A stretch of 64,000 bases of DNA. It comes from a virus. The notes under the pieces were generated by a model. It searched no databases and was not told the origin of the DNA. It worked only from the letters and a program-made list of their open reading frames with translations. The position numbers and the translations under genes were made by a program. The stretch covers positions 1 to 64,000 of the IMG/VR virus record IMGVR_UViG_3300046692_000130. One strand, given 5' to 3'. This document shows, in pieces, positions 1 through 18,784 of the stretch; positions within the stretch are counted from its first letter, which is position 1; each line of letters begins with the position of its first letter.

Positions 1-345
1 GCCGTCCGTTATGTCTGGCGCGATCTCTGGCGCGTCTTTGTTTGCATCTATTGAAACGGTAAACGCATGCGAGACTTGCCCGTCAAGTAAAAACTTTGCT
101 GGCGCTGGCGTATATGCGTCGACGCTGGCCCGTTGCTGGCCCGTGTGGCGTCCGTGTGGCGTCCGTTATGCTCTGGCCCGTCCGTCTACGCTGGCGCGTC
201 TCTGGCCCGTTGTGGCGATCTCTGGCCCGTTGCTCTGGCCGTTGCTTGGCGCTGGCGCTGGCGCTGGCCGTCGACGCTGGCCCGTGTGGCGATCTCTAAA
301 GCGCTTGGCCGTTGCGCTGGCGCTGGCGCGATCTCTGCCACAAAG
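1..345. repeat. Short-word repeat block A (CTGGCCCGT, GCGCTGGC, GCGATCTCTGG, GTCGACG), A-poor on + strand
   Basis: Mosaic of recurring 5-11 nt words visible directly; reverse-complement vocabulary of the block at 3280-3770. Confidence 0.85.
56..86 (-). promoter_or_regulatory. Putative promoter TTGACG-N19-TACCGT firing out of the window to the left
   Basis: Same -35 and same 19-nt spacer as the promoters at 1332-1362 and 2858-2888. Confidence 0.5.
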
Positions 346-375
346 TAAAACGGCCAGACTCTAAAGTCTGACCGT
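342..375 (-). terminator. Rho-independent terminator, near-identical copy at 1436-1470
   Basis: Minus strand hairpin ACGGTCAGAC...GTCTGGCCGT followed by TTTACTTT, just downstream of ORF 400-1092. Confidence 0.75.
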
Positions 376-399
376 GTAACCGTGTGATGTTCTGGCGCG

Positions 400-1092
400 C
401 TATTGAATGACGTTTAGAAGCGCTTTATTTGCCTTTTTCACTCCACTGCCATGTGTTGCAAAAGCGATTACAGCGCCAGTATCGCGCAAACGGTCAGCAT
501 TCATGCAAAGCTTGCATGATAGGCAATTTGCAGCTTTGCCCGTTTGTTGTGGGCAAGGAATTACCCTTACTCCGTCGACAACTTTAGCGCTGGCCGTATC
601 GTGATATTCGACAACAATAGCAGCGCCAAAACCCTTTGCCATGGCGTCTTTTGTATCGGCGATAGTCTCGCAAGATGCAAGCACGGACACATCACGCCAT
701 GACTGGCGCGAAACATTACGCCATGCATGCGTGTAAGACCATACACTCTGGCCATGCTTGGCGCGATACTCTGACGCTGCAGCGCTAACCGTCGACGCGC
801 CAGCATCCGTTGTGCAATCTCCCACAACGTGTAGACGCAACGGACGGACGCCAGACAATTCACGGATTGCCAGCGCTTCGTTATCGGCCAGCGTCTGTAG
901 ACTCTGACCCTTTGCTGCAGTGTTGAGACGCTTTGTATGTATCGCCATAGGGCCAGACTCGGCGTAGCATCCTGACCCTTGAAACGGGCAACTAGACGGG
1001 CAAGTCTCTTGTGATGCATATGTGGCCGATACTTCACCAATTTTGATGTTGCCAGACTTCTCAATTGCCATAACTCCAATGTGCTTTGCCAT
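400..1092 (-). CDS. Cys-rich phage protein (DUF7227/gp88-like, possible Fe-S or metal binding)
   Basis: 230 aa; TCPSSCPFQGSGCYAESGP, RLHVVGD, YTH, CPQQ..NCLSCKLC motifs; AAACGGAGAT RBS. Confidence 0.75.
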   Translation of the reverse strand: MAKHIGVMAIEKSGNIKIGEVSATYASQETCPSSCPFQGSGCYAESGPMAIHTKRLNTAAKGQSLQTLADNEALAIRELSGVRPLRLHVVGDCTTDAGASTVSAAASEYRAKHGQSVWSYTHAWRNVSRQSWRDVSVLASCETIADTKDAMAKGFGAAIVVEYHDTASAKVVDGVRVIPCPQQTGKAANCLSCKLCMNADRLRDTGAVIAFATHGSGVKKANKALLNVIQ

Positions 1093-1165
1093 GATTTTTT
1101 GATCTCCGTTTTTCTTGTTTTATAGTGCGTTTTTTGTTGTCTGTATCGTTTGAGATTGCAGCAAA

Positions 1166-1291
1166 TTACCGCGTCTTTGTGGGATAAACCATGTGGCAGA
1201 GTAGACGGGCCAGACCGTGCAAAATGACGTTGTGGAACATAGCAAAGATAATCATTCCGCTGCAGAATATCGGGCCAGCAAAGTTAGTCAT
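1166..1291 (-). CDS. 41-aa hydrophobic peptide (absent from ORF track)
   Basis: MTNFAGPIFCSGMIIFAMFHNVILHGLARLLCHMVYPTKTR*; preceded by the AAACGGAGAT RBS and a promoter. Confidence 0.6.
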   Translation of the reverse strand: MTNFAGPIFCSGMIIFAMFHNVILHGLARLLCHMVYPTKTR

Positions 1292-1331
1292 GCGCTTTTG
1301 ATCTCCGTTTCTTGAAATGTGTTGCATAAAC

Positions 1332-1362
1332 AAAATAGCACGTTTTCTAACTCATCCGTCAA
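1332..1362 (-). promoter_or_regulatory. Putative promoter TTGACG-N19-TATTTT with extended -10 TG
   Basis: Homologous to 2858-2888, including the downstream GCAACACAT and the RBS. Confidence 0.65.
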
Positions 1363-1435
1363 GAAAAATAATTGTCTTATTTTGCGCGATCTCTGGCGCG
1401 ATCTCTGGCCGTTGCTCTGGCGCGATCTCTGCCAC

Positions 1436-1470
1436 AAAGTAAAACGGCCAGACTATAGCGTCTGACCGTT
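1436..1470 (-). terminator. Rho-independent terminator (copy of 342-375)
   Basis: Hairpin plus U-tract downstream of ORF 1523-1798. Confidence 0.75.
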
Positions 1471-1522
1471 GCGTCTAATGCCTATTCTTGGCCCGATACT
1501 GGCCCGTGTAGTGCTTGGCGCG

Positions 1523-1798
1523 CTAATCGTGAGTAATTACAGCATCTATGGCCCGTTGCATCGCATGGCGTCCGTGTGATGAAGGATAAAAGACGCCAAT
1601 CATGCGCGCTGGCGCATTGCGTCCGTCCGGTCTCAAAAAAGCTTTGTAAGGGTTTTCAGTGTCTGGCGTATCGTGGAATTTTTCGATGTGACCCAAAACG
1701 GCATTGCCTCTAAAAATAAGCCACACGTCAGACTCGGAACCTACACGCGCATCCTGCAGAACAACACGGACGCCAGATATTGTGTTTTCGTTTGCCAT
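1523..1798 (-). CDS. Hypothetical protein, 91 aa
   Basis: AAACGGAGAT RBS; lies between a promoter and a terminator. Confidence 0.7.
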   Translation of the reverse strand: MANENTISGVRVVLQDARVGSESDVWLIFRGNAVLGHIEKFHDTPDTENPYKAFLRPDGRNAPARMIGVFYPSSHGRHAMQRAIDAVITHD

Positions 1799-1851
1799 GG
1801 TAATAAATCTCCGTTTCCAATAGGTCTTTTGTTGTCGGTATAGGGTAAGAA

Positions 1852-2817
1852 TTACTGGCCAGCGCTGGCCCGTGTTACGCGTGTACCTGCAGCGCCGAGT
1901 CTAAAGCGCAATGGTTGCCCGTCTATTTTGTTCGGAACATACACTCTGGCCGAATTGCCTAGCAGGTACAAACGGCAATCTTCGAATCTAAAGACGTTGC
2001 CCGTTGCGTCCGTCCAATCCAAAACGATTCCGTCAAGCTGGCAATCTGTATCGTCTGGCGTCAGACCTAGCAAAGCACGGGCAGACGTTGCAGCATCGCG
2101 CTGGCGATCTAACTTAGCGGCCAGCGTCAGAGGATACGCTGCAATTGCCTTTTGACGGTCAGATTCTATTTGCTCTGGCGTGAATACAAGCGAATTGCCT
2201 TTAGCGTCGACGCCAAGCGCTGGCGCGATCTCTGGCAAGTTGTGGCCGTTTCTGTTTTCTTGATTGTGCAAAATGCTGTACGGAATGCCCGAGTTATTCG
2301 CAATGATCATATTTTGCGAATGATCAAAAGCAACCTTTTGCTCTGACCGTTTCGCCATGCATACCATGCAAACTGGCGCATTGCGAACATATACGCGATG
2401 ATCTCCACACGTCGACGCGAAGCAATCGGAGCATGAATCTTTAGCGTCTTTGCATGGCACATCTGCAGTAGAGACCGGATGCGCGCATATGTGGCAATGG
2501 TTGGCCCGTTGCTCTGCCACATAATCCGCATAACCTTCTATCGCATGCATGGCGTGAACATCAGACATCCGCGTCTTAGCATCCGAGTTATAGAAACGGA
2601 CGGTAATGTTTCCGCGAGTGTCAGACGTTGCACGGGCAAAGATTCCACACGCCAAAACAGATTCAACACGGATTGTGTTGTAAGACCACGAAGGAACTGC
2701 AGGATTCTCTTTTGCAATCGTTTGGATTGCGCGCCAGATTGCCCGTCTAACCGTTTCAAGTTTGCTTTGTGCATCCGTTGCGATCTCAATTACCGTGTAT
2801 TCGATTTTGCTTGCCAT
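1852..2817 (-). CDS. Hypothetical protein with central Zn-finger-like Cys/His cluster, 321 aa
   Basis: Start moved to ATG 2817 behind the AAACGGAGAT RBS; CHIC..C..CSDC..CGDH..CMVC. Confidence 0.75.
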   Translation of the reverse strand: MASKIEYTVIEIATDAQSKLETVRRAIWRAIQTIAKENPAVPSWSYNTIRVESVLACGIFARATSDTRGNITVRFYNSDAKTRMSDVHAMHAIEGYADYVAEQRANHCHICAHPVSTADVPCKDAKDSCSDCFASTCGDHRVYVRNAPVCMVCMAKRSEQKVAFDHSQNMIIANNSGIPYSILHNQENRNGHNLPEIAPALGVDAKGNSLVFTPEQIESDRQKAIAAYPLTLAAKLDRQRDAATSARALLGLTPDDTDCQLDGIVLDWTDATGNVFRFEDCRLYLLGNSARVYVPNKIDGQPLRFRLGAAGTRVTRASAGQ

Positions 2818-2857
2818 GGTCTCTAATCTCCGTTTTTGTTTTATGTGTTGCACATCC

Positions 2858-2888
2858 AAAATAGCATGCAATCTAACGTATCCGTCAA
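2858..2888 (-). promoter_or_regulatory. Putative promoter TTGACG-N19-TATTTT overlapped by palindrome CGTCA-N10-TGACG
   Basis: CGTCAATTTATTTTCTGACG occurs at 2883 and again at 3261. Confidence 0.65.
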
Positions 2889-3279
2889 TTTATTTTCTGA
2901 CGGTATTACGTCAAGCATTCAAATTGAATGATTTTGATCTCATCTATATATAGCGAAAAAAAATCTCATGCGATACATGTTTACTAAATAGTAAAAATAT
3001 AGGCATTTTTAGTGAGTTTTCCACAAGCAATTAAACGCTATTAGAGACGCCACACGGACGCGGATGTCTGACCGTGTAGGGTAGGACGTTTCTTTTAGTC
3101 GACGTCTGTACGGGCCAGCAAACGGCCACAGCGTTTAAATTCGTTTTCGCTTTTCATACGCTTTTGACCTATTTTTCCTATTCGCCAGATTAGCTTTTGT
3201 GTCAATAGCTTTTTTTGAGACTCACGGAAAAAAGTTACAGTCAAGAAAAAAGTATGATTGCGTCAATTTATTTTCTGAC

Positions 3280-3770
3280 GCGCCAGACGGACGGCCACAC
3301 GTCGACGCCAGAGCAACGGCCAGCGCCAGACGCCAGCGCGCATGTATGCACGGACACGGACGGGCCAGACCGTACCCTATACGCGCCAGAGATCGCGCAA
3401 CGGACAACGGCCAGACCATTAGGACAACGGACGGCCAGACGGACAACGGCCAGCGCCAGACGTCGACGCGCCAAGCGATACAGACGGGCCAGTCTCGGGC
3501 CAGAGATCGCGCAACGGTCAGACGGCCAGAGCATGGCAACGGACGCCACACGGGCCAGTATGCGCGCCAGAGTACAGACGCCAGACACGGGCCAGCGCCA
3601 GAGTATGTAGACGTCAGACGGACGGGCCAGACCATGTGGCAGAGATCGCGCAACGGCCAGCGCGCCAGCATAGATAGAAGGTACGTATAGACGGACGGAC
3701 ACGGGCCAGCATACGGGCCAGATACAGACATAGTAGAAGGTGAGATATCAGACCATGGCGTCTATGCACG
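3280..3770. repeat. Short-word repeat block B (GCCAG, ACGGGCCAG, AGAGATCGCGC, ACGGACG), T-poor on + strand
   Basis: More than 20 GCCAG words; 3539-3558 is the exact reverse complement of 136-155. Confidence 0.85.
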
Positions 3771-3848
3771 GTCTTAGATAGGCAAAGTCTTTGCTTTGCT
3801 TAGACTTAGCACGGGCCAAGCATGGCCAAGCATACGCCAAGCACAACC

Positions 3849-4125
3849 TAAGTTATTGATTCTATTAGAGACCACGGCAATCCACGAAAGACTTCGTAGA
3901 TAGACGCCTATTAGATTCAATGACATACGGGCAAGCGCTTTGTAACCTATTGAATTCATTACGTTTGAATCTACGAACTTCATCGTACGAACATCATCGT
4001 AGGCTAAGTTGTTCATTTTGAATGAGATAGCGGGGGTGGGTTCAAAATCGCATTATCAGACCTACTCGCGACCGACGCGCAGGTTGAATTTACACACCTG
4101 CACATCATTTAGAATCAAGGAGATA
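3849..4125 (+). other. Putative cos / packaging initiation region with IHF-like sites
   Basis: GGGGGTGGGTTCAAAATC..GACCGACGCGCAGGTTGAATTTACAC resembles cos regions of HK97-type phages as I recall them; IHF consensus YAANNNNTTGATW perfect at 3849, one mismatch at 3943, 4005, 4113; sharp compositional boundary. Confidence 0.6.
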
Positions 4126-4423
4126 GGCAATTTCAGCACTTTCGCGCCCTCGGCCCCGGTGATGGTCTGCTTGGTTGTCATGGTGGGATTCATTGATCCT
4201 AAAAGAGTTCTGCCCCAATGTCAAGCATAAAGTGTGCAGTAATCACTGCATACATTTTCTTGTCAAATTAGGGTAATTTTTATGCTTATTGAGGCAACCA
4301 TACCTTCAGGGCAGACCGGCGCAGCCACGAGGCGCTAATGAGCAGGGCGAGGCACTCTAGGCGATGCTCTGACCCCCATGCTACGGCTTGGATCCACAGG
4401 TAGGTTTCGCCTATGATTCGCCC

Positions 4424-4771
4424 ATGTGGTTTATGGAGCCGATGAACGCCCGAGGCAAGCCAGCGACTCACCGCGTCCTGATGAACTACATGCTCCGTGA
4501 CGGGTGGCAGATCAGCTTCCTCGAAGCCGACTGTAAGACTTCCCTCCCCCACCGGCTGGTCTTCCGTGACCCGGGAAAGATTTTGGAGATGCAGATCCGG
4601 TGGGGTGAGGAGAAGTCATCAGCCAGAACGGGCGACATCGAGCGCGACATTCGAATGGGTCGACCCGGGGGAGTCTGGCTGATCCTTTCAACTGAGGACT
4701 ACGAGAAATTGCGGGTGGTGCGTAAACCAGTCAGATCGGTCAGCACGACCGTCAGACGGCGACAGGGCTAG
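4424..4771 (+). CDS. Conserved hypothetical protein (type recalled from Acidobacteriota genomes)
   Basis: HRVLMNYMLRDGWQISFLEAD..GRPGGVWLIL; probably leaderless from ATG 4424, 6 nt after TATGAT. Confidence 0.65.
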   Translation: MWFMEPMNARGKPATHRVLMNYMLRDGWQISFLEADCKTSLPHRLVFRDPGKILEMQIRWGEEKSSARTGDIERDIRMGRPGGVWLILSTEDYEKLRVVRKPVRSVSTTVRRRQG

Positions 4772-4977
4772 TCGGCGCGTAGTTCATCGCCCATGGTGCC
4801 AAGGAACTCGACCGGCCTACCGTCTTCGTCAACGAACTGTAGATCGCGACCATAGGGCATGGCGAACAACGGGCTGGCCGCTGCTGGGCGCTCAAGCCCA
4901 TTCGTTGATATCCCCAAAGCCGCCAGTGTAGTCTTCAATGAGTCGACATCGTCAGGATGAACTAGGAACGTGATCAA
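4768..4977 (-). CDS. Hypothetical protein
   Basis: Overlapping start/stop with 4974-5243; GGAGG RBS. Confidence 0.6.
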   Translation of the reverse strand: MITFLVHPDDVDSLKTTLAALGISTNGLERPAAASPLFAMPYGRDLQFVDEDGRPVEFLGTMGDELRAD

Positions 4978-5243
4978 AGCTTCCTCCGGTGGTCTCTCTG
5001 CTGAACTGGGTGGGGGCAGAGCGACATGTCAGCGTTGTGGATTGCTCGTGCTCGGGCGTAGAGACGGTGGTACTGTTCGCTAAAAACACTGTAGGCGACA
5101 CAGCCAACGATCTCGCCCGGGGTGCAGCCACAGACCTTAGGTTGATTCTCGGCTGCTCGTTTGGACGCCTCCATCTGCTCTTCCCGGCGCTGCGCCCAGA
5201 GGCTCAACAAGTACCATTTTTGCGGTATAGCTTGAGTGCTCAT
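4974..5243 (-). CDS. Hypothetical protein
   Basis: ATGA-coupled operon member. Confidence 0.6.
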   Translation of the reverse strand: MSTQAIPQKWYLLSLWAQRREEQMEASKRAAENQPKVCGCTPGEIVGCVAYSVFSEQYHRLYARARAIHNADMSLCPHPVQQRDHRRKL

Positions 5244-5650
5244 GCGATCCTCGCAGTTCCAAGCGCGGGGATCCTTAGCTTGTTCATGGCGCGTGAGAAG
5301 CCAGACTGGCGCTGGGTGTCTTGTGGCATCTCACCGGTCTCAAAAAACTCCATGCCGGTGGCAGTGATACGTGCGCCCTGTACGTTAGTACCTTTGAACT
5401 CGATCAATCCCCTGCGCCGTGCGCGCTCTATGGCCTGATCGATAAGTTGATGGTCTGCGGACGGTCGCGTGAAACGGAGTACAAGATCCCCGTATCGAAG
5501 ATCTGGTTTGTTTCCCTTAGGGGCAGATGAATCGAAGGTGCGATGGAGTTCTGCAATCATGAAGCCCCGAACTACTTGCAGATCGGTGATGTCTTCTCTG
5601 TGTTGCTGCTCCGCGTAAAGGTTAGGCACTACTGCGCTGCTGCCAGACAT
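5240..5650 (-). CDS. Hypothetical protein, possible winged-helix C-terminal half
   Basis: AAGGA RBS; RRRGLIEF..ARITATG pattern. Confidence 0.6.
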   Translation of the reverse strand: MSGSSAVVPNLYAEQQHREDITDLQVVRGFMIAELHRTFDSSAPKGNKPDLRYGDLVLRFTRPSADHQLIDQAIERARRRGLIEFKGTNVQGARITATGMEFFETGEMPQDTQRQSGFSRAMNKLRIPALGTARIA

Positions 5651-5663
5651 GGTACTTGTTCCT

Positions 5664-6200
5664 TCATGATTGAAATTCGTTTGCCGTCATGATCGTTGTA
5701 TTCGATCGGTCTCCCTCTGTAACGATTACCAGAGGCACTCGATTGCTTAGTGTGAACTTGCTTATGAGTCGTCCACCGTTCTTGGCACCCTTGTCGTTGA
5801 GGCGCTTCTGCTTCGGTGTAACTTCGCCCCAGTCGCCGGTCATATGGCGCGGAAGGAACGACGCAACATTCTCGTCGGCAGTGAAGAGAGCTTCCATCCC
5901 TGCCTTAGTCGTATGGCATTGACCAAGATCTGTATAGGGCAGGAGTGGCTTCTTCGGGAGCCGGTGCTTCGTTGCATTGACTCGTTGCCCGAGGTTGTAA
6001 CCTTCTTCAAAGATCGCCGTCTGGGCCTCTTCGCAAACGATCAACCTACGGACGATCTTCGTAACCTGCTCAGGAGTGAAGTACTCAGCAAACTCCTTCT
6101 TTGATTTCGTGCTTCTTCTCTTTGCGCTCTTCGCAATTCGCAATGCTTCATCGAGATCTATGTCGGTGCCTACGTACATGGGGAGTCCCTCGCAAATCAA
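5664..6200 (-). CDS. Protein with C-terminal plasmid/ICE-type domain (RH..GDWG..GGRLIS..TEGDRS.TT)
   Basis: Recognisable motif string of a widespread small mobile-element family; GAGG RBS. Confidence 0.7.
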   Translation of the reverse strand: MICEGLPMYVGTDIDLDEALRIAKSAKRRSTKSKKEFAEYFTPEQVTKIVRRLIVCEEAQTAIFEEGYNLGQRVNATKHRLPKKPLLPYTDLGQCHTTKAGMEALFTADENVASFLPRHMTGDWGEVTPKQKRLNDKGAKNGGRLISKFTLSNRVPLVIVTEGDRSNTTIMTANEFQS

Positions 6201-15148: not shown

Positions 15149-15268
15149 AAACAGTGAACGCCGAAAATGTCGATTTATTTTGTCTCGTAAGTATCTTATT
15201 ATTCAGCATGTTACAGACCTTGACTTTTTCCACATCTTGTAATATGAGAATTCCGTGATATACTATGT
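15149..15268 (+). promoter_or_regulatory. Regulatory element copy 2, probable tRNA/late operon promoter
   Basis: ACGCCGAAAAT..ATTTATTT..GTTAC..TTTTCCACA..GTGATATACT aligns with 13651-13772. Confidence 0.55.
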
Positions 15269-15425: not shown

Positions 15426-15502
15426 TGGGTGATAGCACAAGTTGGTAGTGCATTCCGCTGTTAACGGAACGGTTGTAGGTTCGAACCCTACTCGCCCAGC
15501 CA
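15426..15502 (+). tRNA. tRNA-Asn(GTT)
   Basis: Acceptor TGGGTGA/TCGCCCA, anticodon arm TTCCG-CTGTTAA-CGGAA, GTTCGAA T-loop, encoded CCA. Confidence 0.93.
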
Positions 15503-15565
15503 CATAAAGCCGCGTATACCAAGGCGGCTGGGGCCAACCCTAGTGGTGGCCCCCTTAGCATTCAC

Positions 15566-15639
15566 AGGTCGGTAAGCTAACGGCAAACTGTCTGGCTCCA
15601 AACCAGAACTTGCGGGTTCAAATCCTGCTCGACCTGCCA
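15566..15639 (+). tRNA. tRNA-Trp(CCA)
   Basis: Acceptor AGGTCGG/TCGACCT, anticodon arm TCTGG-CTCCAAA-CCAGA, GTTCAAA T-loop, encoded CCA. Confidence 0.93.
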
Positions 15640-15708
15640 AACATCAACAACAGACCCGCCACGCCTCTCACGGAAGCGCAACTGGCGGGTTTTCTATTTG
15701 GAGCAAAC

Positions 15709-16089
15709 TTGCCATCTCGAAGTCAACGACCATGCTCGGTTCCCGGGTGTACGAACCTGTGCGCGAACAGATGGTGCGAGATCCACGAGAAGGACAAGAC
15801 GGTCACACGGAAGTACGACCTCTACAGGGGCAGCAGCACTGAGAGAGGCTACGGCGGCGAGTGGCGCAAGGTTCGCCTTCAGATCCTGAAGCGCGACAAC
15901 TTCCTCTGCGTTGCCTGTCTGGCCACTGGCCGACCGACCACGGCAACTGACGTCGATCACATCGTGCCTATGGCGCGTGGCGGTGCTCGACTGGATCCTA
16001 ACAACCTGCAGTCACTTTGCAGTGTGTGCCACAAACGCAAGACCTATGAGCACGATGGGGCATTTGGCAACGACGTAAGCGAGATCTAA
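15709..16089 (+). CDS. Terminase-associated HNH endonuclease (HK97 gp74-like)
   Basis: Start reassigned to TTG 15709 (GGAG RBS); RPC..PGC, RGY..W, VDHIVP..GG..NLQSLC..CH..KT. Confidence 0.9.
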   Translation: MPSRSQRPCSVPGCTNLCANRWCEIHEKDKTVTRKYDLYRGSSTERGYGGEWRKVRLQILKRDNFLCVACLATGRPTTATDVDHIVPMARGGARLDPNNLQSLCSVCHKRKTYEHDGAFGNDVSEI

Positions 16090-16103: not shown

Positions 16104-16667
16104 ATGACGTGCATAGTAGGTCTCGTCGATAAAGACGGTGTTGTGCTTGGAGGAGATTCAGCGGGTGTCGATGAGTCGTTCGCTATAGAGTCGCGCACAG
16201 ACCCAAAAGTCTTCACGCGTGGCCCATTTGTCATTGGCTTCGCTGGCAGCTTCCGCATTGGGCAATTGCTGCGCTACAAGCTCACGACGCCTCAACATCA
16301 GATCAAGCTCGAAGATCACGAGTACATGGCGACACGTTTCGTGGACGCGGTACGAAAGTGCCTGAAGGACAACGGCGCGGTGAGTGATGACTTCAAGGCA
16401 GAGACCGGCGGTACCTTCTTGGTCGTCTATCGCAACAAGCTGTACTCGATTCAAGAAGACTACCAAGTCGCTTGTGTGCAGGATTCGTTCGACGCAATCG
16501 GGTGTGGATCTGACATCGCGAAGGGCGCACTTTACGTGCTCCCGAAAGACATGACGACTGAAGATCGAGCGCTGAAGGCACTACAGGCTGCTGAACGATT
16601 CAGCGCCGGTGTGCGCGGCCCGTTCCATCTCGTCCGAAGTAAAAAACAACGAAAGAAAGTGAAGTAA
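16104..16667 (+). CDS. HslV/proteasome-beta-like Ntn-hydrolase peptidase
   Basis: M-TCIVG N-terminal Thr, GGDS, PKVF, GFAGS, AIGCGS. Confidence 0.8.
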   Translation: MTCIVGLVDKDGVVLGGDSAGVDESFAIESRTDPKVFTRGPFVIGFAGSFRIGQLLRYKLTTPQHQIKLEDHEYMATRFVDAVRKCLKDNGAVSDDFKAETGGTFLVVYRNKLYSIQEDYQVACVQDSFDAIGCGSDIAKGALYVLPKDMTTEDRALKALQAAERFSAGVRGPFHLVRSKKQRKKVK

Positions 16668-17081
16668 ATGCCGACACCAAGAAAGACAGTCGACCAACTG
16701 CGACTGAGTGGAGCACTTGACGTGAACCCCGGTAGATATGCGGATCGCGTCGAGAACGAACCGGTACCAACTGGCGAGATCGGTGATCCTCCTGAGCACT
16801 TCAGGCATGCCAAGAAAAAGATCTGGCGCGAGATCGTTGCGAACTCTCCCCCGGGAGTGCTCAAGAATAGCGACCGCATGACAGTCGAACTTGCTGCTCA
16901 CCTAATGGACAAGCTTCGTAACGACGAGGAAGGAATCTTGAAGGCGAGTGAGTACACCTTGCTGCTGAACGTCCTCGCGAAGCTCGGTATGAACCCAATT
17001 GACCGCACACGAATCGCGGCAACCCCGCCCGACAAGAAAGAGAAAGCTGCCGATCCATGGGCAGAGCTACTGCAGCAGTGA
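16668..17081 (+). CDS. terS: Terminase small subunit (P27-like)
   Basis: PRK..NPGR, PPEH..AKKKIW, KLGMNP.DR; directly before TerL. Confidence 0.85.
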   Translation: MPTPRKTVDQLRLSGALDVNPGRYADRVENEPVPTGEIGDPPEHFRHAKKKIWREIVANSPPGVLKNSDRMTVELAAHLMDKLRNDEEGILKASEYTLLLNVLAKLGMNPIDRTRIAATPPDKKEKAADPWAELLQQ

Positions 17082-17092
17082 CCTAACCACAC

Positions 17093-18784
17093 ATGAACAT
17101 CTCGATCAATCACGCGCACGACGCGCACCAATACGCACATGACGTCGTCGCTGGAAAGATCACGTCCTGTAAGTGGGTCAAGCTTGCATGCGAACGACAC
17201 CTGAAAGGTCTCGACGAAGCAAAGCAGGATAGCTACCAGTGGGAGTTCGATGAAGCTAAAGCGAACAAGGTTTGCAAGTTCATGGAACTGCTCCCACATG
17301 TCAAAGGCAAATGGGCTGCTAAAGCTGAAACAGTACGGCTAGAACCATGGCAGAAATTCGTAATTGCGAACATGTTCGGATGGGTCGATAAGACCACCGG
17401 CCTTCGCAAGTACCGCATCGTCTACATCTGCGTTCCTCGTAAGAACGGCAAGAGCTTCTTGGCTGCTGGCATCGGGTTGTACTTGTTCGCGCTCGATGGT
17501 GAGTTTGGCGCTGAGGTTTATTCCGGTGCAACCACTGAGAAGCAAGCGTGGGAAATTTTCCGACCGGCGCAACAGATGTGTGAACGCACACCTGCACTGC
17601 GCGAACGTCTCGGGATCGCGGTCAACGCGAAGACACTGACGATTGAAAGCAACGGCTCCCGTATGTTGCCTGTCATCGGATCTCCCGGTGATGGTGCCTC
17701 GCCGTCTGGCTCCCTCATCGACGAATACCACGAGCATCCTACAGACGTCCTGCTCGACACCATGATCACTGGTATGGGTGCTCGTGAGCAGCCTCTGGCG
17801 ATCATCACTACGACTGCTGGCTCAAACACTGCTGGCCCTTGCCGAATGCTCCAGAGTGATCTGGAGAAGGTTCTGGAAGGGACTTTTACGAACAACGAAC
17901 TCTTCGGTGTGATCTACACCATCGACGAGGGCGACGACTGGCAAAGCGAGGAAGCACTTCGCAAAGCGAATCCGAACTACGACGTATCAGTATCGGGCGA
18001 CTTCTTGAAAGCGCGTGTCGCTGAGGCAGTACAGTCGAGTCGCAAACAAAACATCACCAAGACGAAGCACCTGAACGTCTGGGTAAACGCAACGAGTGCA
18101 TTCTTCAACGTAGCCAAGTGGATGACACTGGCCGACGCGAATCTACACGAAGACCAGTTCATTGGTCAGCCTTGCGTTACCGGTCTCGACCTTGCGTCAC
18201 AGATCGACATCGCAGCCTCAGTGAAAGTCTTCATGAGGCAGATAGATGGCGTCGAACACTACTACATCTTTGGGAAGTTTTATATCCCAACGGATACGGT
18301 GAACCTGCCGCAGAATCAGCACTACCAGCAGTGGCACCATGAAGAGCAACTCATAGCTACTCCCGGCAGTGAGACCGACTTCAGCTTTATCAAGCGAGGA
18401 ATCCTCGAAGACGCAGAGAAGTTCGCCGTCAAAGAGTTGGCGTTCGATAAATATCAAGCCACTCACTTGAAGCAGGAGATCGCGGCAGAGACATCCATCC
18501 TGACCACCGAGATCCCGCAGACACCCTTGATGTTGTCTGAGCCTATGAAGCAGCTTGAGGCAATGATCATCTCCGGTCGCATCCACCATGACGGCAACCC
18601 TGTGATGACGTGGATGATCGGCAACACCGTTGCCAGAGTCGATGCGAATGAGAATGTCTTTCCACGTAAGGAGAGACCTGAGAACAAAATAGACGGCGTC
18701 TCTGCCTTACTGAATGCGCTCGTTAGAGTTCGCTCTGCGATTACCGCACTTGATACAGAGTTCTTCGACTTCAACGGATTTTGA
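17093..18784 (+). CDS. terL: Terminase large subunit (HK97-type)
   Basis: PRKNGKS Walker A, IDEYHEH, ITTTAG, GLDLA, KIDG. Confidence 0.97.
   Translation: MNISINHAHDAHQYAHDVVAGKITSCKWVKLACERHLKGLDEAKQDSYQWEFDEAKANKVCKFMELLPHVKGKWAAKAETVRLEPWQKFVIANMFGWVDKTTGLRKYRIVYICVPRKNGKSFLAAGIGLYLFALDGEFGAEVYSGATTEKQAWEIFRPAQQMCERTPALRERLGIAVNAKTLTIESNGSRMLPVIGSPGDGASPSGSLIDEYHEHPTDVLLDTMITGMGAREQPLAIITTTAGSNTAGPCRMLQSDLEKVLEGTFTNNELFGVIYTIDEGDDWQSEEALRKANPNYDVSVSGDFLKARVAEAVQSSRKQNITKTKHLNVWVNATSAFFNVAKWMTLADANLHEDQFIGQPCVTGLDLASQIDIAASVKVFMRQIDGVEHYYIFGKFYIPTDTVNLPQNQHYQQWHHEEQLIATPGSETDFSFIKRGILEDAEKFAVKELAFDKYQATHLKQEIAAETSILTTEIPQTPLMLSEPMKQLEAMIISGRIHHDGNPVMTWMIGNTVARVDANENVFPRKERPENKIDGVSALLNALVRVRSAITALDTEFFDFNGF

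Follow-up and report, generated by a model that had tools for sequence, protein, structure and literature searches.

Avoidance of short words by phages is usually read as escape from restriction enzymes, and the first-step-transfer DNA of T5 is the model of a leading region. Scrambled short-motif DNA that arises from slippage is reportedly what Tautz and colleagues described in 1986 as cryptic simplicity. In T7-like phages and in the early region of Murciavirus, it is the leading region that avoids restriction motifs (PMC12455610). Here we analyse a 64,000-nt window of virus record IMGVR_UViG_3300046692_000130, comprising the first 64 kb of its 94,594-bp contig. At the start of the window lies most of a 4.55-kb island of restricted word usage (contig 93846-94364 and 1 to about 4025), which closes over the circular junction of the contig; positions below are those of the window unless marked as contig positions. 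The island carries the gene of a DUF7227 protein, three genes without recognized families and three oriented arrays of a short motif. We know of no described phage region in which the k-mer repertoire is cut so sharply through genes and spacers alike.

One word set in genes, spacers and regulatory sites

Genes, spacers, arrays, promoters, ribosome-binding sites (RBSs) and terminators of the island share one common low-entropy word set, which is common neither to the rest of the phage nor to homologues of the DUF7227 gene. The first-pass annotation, made by eye, had counted two CCGG (1627 and 2475) and no GGGG or CCCC in 1-4030, and recounting gives exactly these numbers, compared with 14 CCGG in 4100-6100. 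Its further impressions also hold in 1-4030: GAGG, CCTC, GGTG and CACC occur once each, compared with 2.8-4.6 per kb window-wide, while CTGGC/GCCAG reaches 37 + 41 = 78 copies (about 4-5 times the window rate), ACGG/CCGT 104 copies (several-fold enriched) and GTCGACG eight copies, and GCGATCTC has 9 of the 11 copies in the window here. Nearly all GG/CC dinucleotides lie inside CTGGC or ACGG-type words, and 15 depleted 4-mers together occur about 22 times in the whole island, compared with about 25 times per 500 bp elsewhere.

The size of this bias is best seen against other DNA of the same genome. The Jensen-Shannon distance between the 4-mer spectra of island and rest is 0.099, compared with 0.0079 ± 0.0021 for 170 other windows of 4.5 kb, which places the island about 44 standard deviations (sd) away from all of them; the 4-mer correlation with the rest of the genome is likewise low (rho 0.23, compared with 0.88 for other windows). 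The conditional entropy H(4|3) drops to 1.759 bits from 1.931 ± 0.013 in the same genome, while the minimum among 172 mid-GC windows of unrelated DNA is 1.877, and a value of 1.759 is otherwise met only in DNA of about 75% GC. The base composition of the island is nevertheless balanced (H1 = 2.00 bits). Only 57% of all 6-mers are present, compared with 78.6 ± 2.0% in other windows.

The depletion is significant beyond GC and amino-acid content, the ordinary explanation that the first-pass annotation had set against its own observation, and it holds in the codon-preserving shuffles proposed there, in which the amino acids and the codon usage of each gene are fixed. The DUF7227 gene contains 5 depleted words, compared with 20.0 ± 3.5 after shuffling, and orf321, the largest gene of the island, contains 5, compared with 26.1 ± 4.0; in neither case does any of 2000 shuffles reach the observed number. 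Context bias beyond codon usage amounts to a mean z-squared of 3.44, about 5 sd above the 2.03 ± 0.26 of 11 control gene chunks. When the word set is taken from the non-coding DNA, it holds in the coding part (97 occurrences versus 281 expected), and a set taken from the coding DNA likewise holds in the non-coding part (2 versus 83 expected). The per-word log-ratios of the two parts correlate with r = 0.80 (arrays versus coding sequence, rho 0.61), and the vocabulary of orf321 is as restricted as that of the arrays. Promoters, RBSs and terminators are themselves composed of island words.

Inside the genes, the favoured words are spread over the three reading frames and both orientations and specify a variety of dipeptides, which indicates a constraint on the DNA and not on the protein. 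The island genes have a GC content at third codon positions (GC3) of 0.48, compared with 0.66 elsewhere, and the codons ACC, CCC, CTC, CGA and AGG are almost unused. Compared with its homologues, the DUF7227 gene has been recoded into the island vocabulary: it contains 7.2 depleted words per kb, whereas 10 homologues spanning 47-63% GC contain 48-73, and the recoding is local to the island copy.

Edges, cassettes and polar arrays

An order-3 Markov likelihood scan places change points at contig 93846 and at 3970, and forbidden words first cluster at 4032. The breakpoint expected near 4030 from the first reading of the sequence is therefore present, whereas the left limit drawn there at base 1 is not an edge, the island running on to contig 93846. 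Scored against the island, no further island-like 300-bp window is found anywhere in the genome. The two copies of a 22-bp direct repeat each lie about 20 bp or less from one of the compositional breakpoints (93846; 3970-4031). They match at 19 of 22 bases around the exact 11-mer core GCTAAGTTGTT, score 14.5 compared with a maximum of 13.0 in 1000 shuffles, and are the only two copies in the genome even when up to 4 mismatches are allowed; the 11-mer core is exclusive to them. We infer that the repeat is probably an insertion or excision scar, in which case the vocabulary would belong to the inserted unit. Terminal inverted repeats are absent (the best inverted end-to-end match scores 9.0, which is shuffle level), so that the features of a transposon or insertion sequence are present only in part, with a direct repeat and with neither inverted repeats nor a transposase. 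Longer homology between both flanks was sought and the idea was dropped. At 3784-3808 lies an AAGTCT...AGACTT hairpin, to which a counterpart at contig 93877-93901 shows borderline similarity (12.5, equal to the best shuffle).

All island genes are on the minus strand and form two cassettes, each consisting of a sigma-70-like promoter, the RBS AAACGGAGAT, one or more genes and an intrinsic terminator. Cassette A runs from its promoter region through orf321 and orf91 to its terminator, and cassette B from its promoter through a 41-codon hydrophobic ORF and the DUF7227 gene to its own. The 10-nt RBS precedes all four genes. The two promoters are near copies, both with TTGACGGAT on the minus strand (1354 and 2880) and an extended -10 element, and the two terminators are 93% identical copies that have in common a 56-nt repeat (family D6), the second copy of which spans 1414-1469. 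Own promoters and terminators, a deviant GC3 and sharp change points are together what is expected of a moron, that is, an autonomous inserted cassette.

The arrays are strictly polar, with the motif on the plus strand in the left (L) array and the mini-array and on the minus strand in the right (R) array. The L array is dense in CTGGC, CCGT and GCGATCTC on its plus strand, which holds 4-7 CTGGC and no GCCAG per 100 bp and is poor in A (2-14% of bases). The plus strand of the R array reads GCCAG/ACGG (5-6 GCCAG and no CTGGC per 100 bp) with a T content of 5-9%, and the array forms 23 inverted-repeat pairs with the L array and the mini-array. Altogether 77 TGGC cores in the arrays fit the pattern sTC-TGGC-sCGT, with an informative length of about 9-10 bp. 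The 9-mer CTGGCCCGT, with 25 copies in the island and a single one in the remaining 90 kb, lies on the plus strand up to 1865 (with one exception) and on the minus strand from 3110, which sets the flip between these positions. An array comes after each cassette terminator, the mini-array in the case of A and the L array in that of B. Inside the genes just 4-5-nt cores recur and the flanking motif positions carry almost no information, indicating that the genes share the vocabulary and not the full array sites. Readings of the words as sigma-54 or T7-type primase sites were dropped as untestable or of the wrong spacing.

A perfect 20-bp repeat, CGTCAATTTATTTTCTGACG (family D15), itself a small hairpin, occupies 2883-2902 and 3261-3280. 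Its copies frame a 358-bp A-tract-rich segment at the polarity flip, which is a candidate for an origin, a bend or a protein-loading site. The 8-bp palindrome CGTCGACG, present 8 times in the island (117, 269, 790, 2205, 2410, 3300, 3461 and contig 94315) and 12 times in the other 90 kb, occurs in the arrays and in both large genes and could be an operator-like site.

The DUF7227 protein contains the invariant motifs CX3CX6C and CX9CX2CX2C. Its structure model (predicted local distance difference test, pLDDT, 84) has as top fold matches radical S-adenosylmethionine (SAM) enzymes, among them QueE (Z 6.1), TYW1 and PFL-AE (these three at Z 5.5-6.1), all of the matches being weak (range 5.2-6.1); CX3CX6C differs from the canonical radical SAM motif CX3CX2C, and the match with NrdG (E 0.009) falls far short of the family cut-off. 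The model weakly suggests a radical-SAM-like protein. The homologue in Tunturiibacter phage Tunturi_1 is labelled a DNA methyltransferase in GenBank, and nothing found here backs this label. Apart from DUF7227, no island protein matches Pfam, PHROG or PADLOC, leaving the other three proteins as orphans, and searches for defence-system proteins and RNA families gave no match in the island.

Table 1 Coordinates of the island features and of the packaging module
Feature	Position	Strand	Remarks
Direct repeat, left copy	contig 93806-93827 (L001:9807-9828)		22 bp
Left (L) array, 0.7 kb	1-345, continuing over the junction to contig 94040 (L001:10041-10595)	+	
Cassette B terminator (intrinsic)	350-375	-	11-bp stem, T-run; island words; L array directly beyond, leftwards
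DUF7227 / GP88-family gene, 230 aa	400-1092	-	RBS 1102-1111; Pfam PF23872, 1.5e-33
Small hydrophobic ORF, 41 aa, opens cassette B	1166-1291	-	RBS 1301-1310
Cassette B promoter	1334-1365 (approximate)	-	-35 TTGACG in TTGACGGAT (1354-1362), extended -10 TGCTATTTT; read from sequence
Mini-array	1376-1522	+	L orientation; encloses cassette A terminator; repeat families D1, D6
Cassette A terminator	1443-1470	-	within mini-array
orf91, no family match	1523-1798	-	RBS 1807-1816
orf321, ORFan, Cys/His-rich middle	1852-2817	-	RBS 2826-2835
AT-rich centre	2818-3280	.	motif polarity flips here
Cassette A promoter(s)	2855-2915	-	in AT-rich centre
Right (R) array	3281-3770	-	L motif family on opposite strand
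Open frame, 80 codons	3774-4016	-	start inside right direct repeat; no RBS; doubtful gene
Direct repeat, right copy	4003-4024	+	22 bp, GCTAAGTTGTT(C)AT(T)TT(G)AATG
HNH endonuclease	15610-16089		
HslV-family peptidase	16104-16667		between HNH and TerS
TerS	16668-17081		
TerL, Terminase_1, HK97-type	17093-18784		

The phage as a whole (about 94 kb) is temperate, with an integrase, an HK97-type head module and a large early arm that encodes PolA, a primase-helicase, RecA, ribonucleotide reductase and dUTPase and contains a weak, sub-threshold ThyX-like match. Relatives of its DNA polymerase in IMG/VR are at most 36% identical, and no synteny partner was found among them. A counter-defence cluster (L234:9832-16804, contig about 72.8-79.8 kb) contains an RNA ligase 2-like protein, a T4 Rnl1-like ligase and PNKP (tRNA repair), followed by NAMPT and an NMNAT/Nudix protein (NAD+ regeneration). 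Just upstream of the packaging genes, at 15426-15639, lie tRNA genes for Asn and Trp, of which the Trp gene overlaps the start of the listed HNH ORF, and a strong promoter-like TTGACT-17-TAATAT is present near 15220.

Explanations of the restricted word set

We consider it quite possible, if short of probable, that the stretch is most of a discrete inserted 4.55-kb module that has a lexicon of its own, linked to its polar arrays, and lies in the leftward early arm of the phage. The lexicon would then be a property of the module as a unit, combining a foreign origin with DNA-level, frame-independent selection on the whole module, and would not be a consequence of the place of this DNA in the virion. 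Most likely, the arrays would be recognition platforms of a factor that reads DNA in one direction, either away from the AT-rich centre or towards it; candidate readers are a roadblock or insulator protein (an array stands behind each terminator), an origin-binding protein, or an end-processing nuclease for which the motif would be a Chi-like signal. The module would have been in the same host pool long enough to obey a genome-wide ban on at least 15 restriction-type sites (see below), and its exclusion of other G/C-containing words would go back to selection on the module as a whole, or to the history that the module shares as a whole. Positive selection for a protein-binding word, one of the two causes that the first-pass annotation had put forward, suits the arrays, where CTGGCCCGT is dense and polar, but does not extend to the genes, which hold only cores, and leaves the missing words unexplained.

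Several observations weigh against this interpretation. First, searches of IMG/VR, GenBank phages, GTDB, JGI metagenome contigs and large protein sets revealed neither a donor nor a sister island, so that a foreign origin follows only from the flanking repeat, the codon usage and the signature. The protein of orf321 has no relative in IMG/VR, is itself the only match among 5.8 billion protein clusters, gives only short partial matches in an exhaustive HMMER search (E ≥ 2e-7) and has no usable match in the ESM Atlas. Island DNA matches GenBank phages only in two short DUF7227 segments of Tunturiibacter phages, and 401 sampled genomes from the phylum of an Acidobacteria-labelled metagenome-assembled genome only by chance (CTGGCG)n matches. 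Patterns built from the array words retrieve from IMG/VR and GTDB either chance high-GC matches or regular tandem repeats, such as those of pentapeptide-repeat genes. None of the DUF7227 neighbourhoods at 11 viral and 75 metagenome loci has the vocabulary, and around the closest DUF7227 homologue (63% identity, on the 4980-bp metagenome contig L235) there is a mild dip only. Second, the signature of the island is far more extreme than ordinary genomic signatures. Third, no transposase, integrase or recombinase family matches in the island, and no DNA-binding protein has been identified there, the structure model of orf321 having failed (pLDDT 39). Fourth, the array motifs are irregularly spaced at 6-72 bp, with no dominant period or helical phasing. 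Finally, the three mismatches between the direct repeats allow other origins, for example an illegitimate-recombination scar, and the 230-bp overlap inside the L array could be a real terminal repeat.

Two further observations were made during these searches. In L235, the density of island-depleted words in a 2-kb stretch (L235:3000-4980) is about a third of that in the flanks, and the stretch contains no arrays; the homologue there lies downstream of an unannotated 161-aa ORF, guessed by eye, with no family search, to be terminase-small-subunit-like. Two unrelated IMG/VR contigs contain 12-bp tandem repeats of the GCGCTGGCCCGT type (L202:12960-13160) and of the CAGTGTAGGGGC type (L209:530-1010), which are similar in words to the island arrays and differ from them in being regular.

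If the cause of the word set is selective, the island points to an as yet unrecognized reader of DNA words with a binding, processing or defence activity, and low conditional entropy at balanced composition becomes a computational signature by which further modules of this kind could be found. A historical cause would imply a donor lineage whose genomic signature has no precedent. A bolder form of the inserted-module reading, which we regard as unlikely, is that the lexicon is encoded in cis and marks the mobile module, with a directional scanner starting from the AT-rich centre that tolerates a small word set only, and with all of the sequence rewritten. Were it true, phage DNA would have a novel way of marking or protecting itself at the level of sequence, beside the restriction-site avoidance of the whole genome.

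The other cause put forward at first, that the island enters the cell first and, being exposed while anti-defence proteins have yet to be made, was purged of defence sites, appears improbable to us. In its favour, the depletion affects both strands symmetrically and non-coding as well as coding DNA, as would be expected if double-stranded sites are avoided; both the contig ends and their overlap fall in the island; the phage has many counter-defence genes (RNA ligases with PNKP, and NAMPT with NMNAT/Nudix); and in Autographiviridae motif loss confined to the leading region has a precedent (PMC12455610). Site avoidance is, moreover, strong in this genome. Outside the island, GGWCC is absent (97 expected) and CCWGG occurs twice (169 expected); GGCGCC, GCCGGC, TGCGCA, CTCGAG, CAGCTG, CGGCCG and AACGTT are all absent (16-33 expected for each), and CGCGCG and CGATCG occur 2 and 4 times (40 and 38 expected). 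The non-palindromic GCACGC, GCGAGC, GCAGGC and GGGCAC, counted on both strands, occur 0-3 times each, compared with about 40 expected for each. The island obeys the same bans, with no banned site where its own lower-order composition predicts 27-33 palindromic and about 12 other ones. It even uses words one step away from banned sites: TGGCGC occurs and GGCGCC never, ACGGCC occurs and CGGCCG never, and there are eight GCGCGC and no CGCGCG. This obedience indicates that the strong purifying selection on the rest of the genome acts on the island too, and that the island is not naive foreign DNA.

Purging of restriction sites is thus real for at least 15 sites genome-wide, the island included, but it fails to account for the losses specific to the island. 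Palindromes are not specially depleted there: of the 64 possible 6-bp palindromes the island keeps 40.6%, compared with 39.1 ± 3.7% in other windows, GGCC, GCGC and GTCGAC are enriched, and the words missing solely from the island are mostly non-palindromic, with no enrichment of palindromes. Nor is there a safety margin around the banned sites, their one-mismatch neighbours not being depleted (ratio 1.01). More than 25 classes of 4-mers are depleted, which exceeds any plausible enzyme set. Restriction-like sites are absent genome-wide, and not absent at a leading end while present elsewhere, so that their avoidance characterizes genome and island alike and is not what sets the island apart. 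Restriction avoidance is a layer separate from the island lexicon, and the restriction signal can here be cleanly separated from a second constraint, which is much broader and strictly local. The banned sites, at least 15 in number, also serve as a prediction of the restriction repertoire of the uncultured host, which is probably acidobacterial.

The idea of an end exposed first also finds no support in the gene order. The HNH-TerS-TerL order, of the HK97 cohesive-end (cos) type, predicts cos at about 15-17 kb, some 12 kb away from the island, and among the closest TerL relatives several stand at the very start of their records. With the packaging module this far away, the island is unlikely to be the first-entering end, and the break of the contig in the L array is best taken as a break of circular assembly in repeats, the predicted cohesive ends lying elsewhere. 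The edges of the island coincide with an insertion-type direct repeat, the island encodes no known anti-defence protein, and purging leaves the over-represented polar words unexplained. A one-base difference within the terminal overlap (bases 1-230, which recur at 94365-94594 with this one mismatch) turns CTGGCCCGT into CTGTCCCGT in one copy and stems either from variation of the array within the population or from faulty assembly.

The polarity of the arrays could also be explained by protection of DNA ends, a possibility to which we assign little probability. Double-strand ends would arise at 2818-3280, at a displaced cos or a recurrent origin break, and the inverted arrays would be Chi-like signals on the G/T-rich, A-poor strand that stop a RecBCD/AddAB-type nuclease on its way outward in either direction. 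The orientation rule of Chi is established RecBCD biology, and known Chi sequences are short, G/T-rich and A-poor; on both sides of the centre, the 3' end of the A-poor array word faces the centre, which is the Chi orientation for an enzyme leaving it, and the array core GCTGGC bears what we take to be a resemblance to the GCTGG of E. coli Chi. The phage encodes RecA, and no RecBCD inhibitor was recognized. However, the copies number dozens, far above any described Chi arrangement, and neither the missing words nor the recoded genes are explained; the gene order puts cos elsewhere, and the model needs DNA ends at the centre.

Just as little probability goes to a neutral origin by cryptic simplicity, in which slippage, template switching and short-patch conversion would have spread a few words and erased others without any function. 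The arrays are indeed scrambled, aperiodic mixtures of few short units, the regulatory modules are duplicated (families D6, D7, D13 and D15), the bias is common to all compartments, and the RNA of the arrays folds like shuffled sequence (z 0.2-0.5), for which reason selected RNA structure was dropped as an explanation. The gene words, however, are 4-5-nt cores in all frames that lack the flanking array sequence and are therefore too short for conversion tracts, and the conserved enzyme gene keeps its invariant residues though recoded. None of about 17 banned sites occurs despite many one-step neighbours, which speaks for strong purifying selection, and the edges are sharp and coincide with the direct repeat. 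It is highly improbable that the island is an assembly artefact or a chimera, with foreign or mis-assembled DNA attached to the two ends of a linear phage contig: although the island spans contig ends that overlap with a mismatch, and has no relatives in any collection searched, the 230-bp overlap closes the circle through it, its genes are intact with conserved residues kept, 22-bp imperfect repeats are too short to drive a mis-join, and, unlike unrelated DNA, it shares the rare-site bans of the genome, with no banned site compared with about 27-44 expected.

Comparison with known systems

Compared with the leading regions of T5, T7-like phages and Murciavirus, the island is likewise a limited stretch free of words found elsewhere, in a phage under heavy restriction pressure. 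What those phages lack is one defined motif or a few, and they lack them at a genome end that is proven to be injected first and that carries genes for anti-restriction proteins. In the island, by contrast, dozens of mostly non-palindromic 4-mers are missing and the classical sites are banned genome-wide; it is bounded by direct repeats, lies probably about 12 kb from cos and has no recognized anti-restriction gene.

The morons of lambdoid and HK97-like phages resemble the island in gene organization, with two self-contained promoter-terminator cassettes of deviant codon usage placed between phage operons, but they are not known to contain kilobase-scale polar arrays or a k-mer repertoire cut by a quarter through coding sequence. 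The iteron, centromere and operator arrays of P1 (incC-repA-incA), F, R1 (parC), lambda (ori) and P4 (ori/crr) are similar in that clusters of oriented short repeats flank genes and an AT-rich segment. Their repeats are, however, 17-22 bp long and regularly spaced, whereas the island motif is of about 9-10 bp and aperiodic, and no Rep or Par family is matched, so that the island does not qualify as an iteron-type replicon or a partition site. Chi and KOPS share with the arrays a short, A-poor, G/T-rich oriented word that flips strand at a symmetry centre; they are distributed at low density over megabases, while in the island dozens of copies crowd into a few hundred bp, and any enzyme that recognizes them is putative. 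Like cryptic simplicity, the arrays are aperiodic mixtures of few short units, but the bias of the island reaches a conserved enzyme gene and goes together with perfect avoidance of about 17 sites, which argues for selection rather than drift. The island thus combines two known kinds of element, a moron-type insertion and motif arrays, and the constraint on top of them is potentially new.

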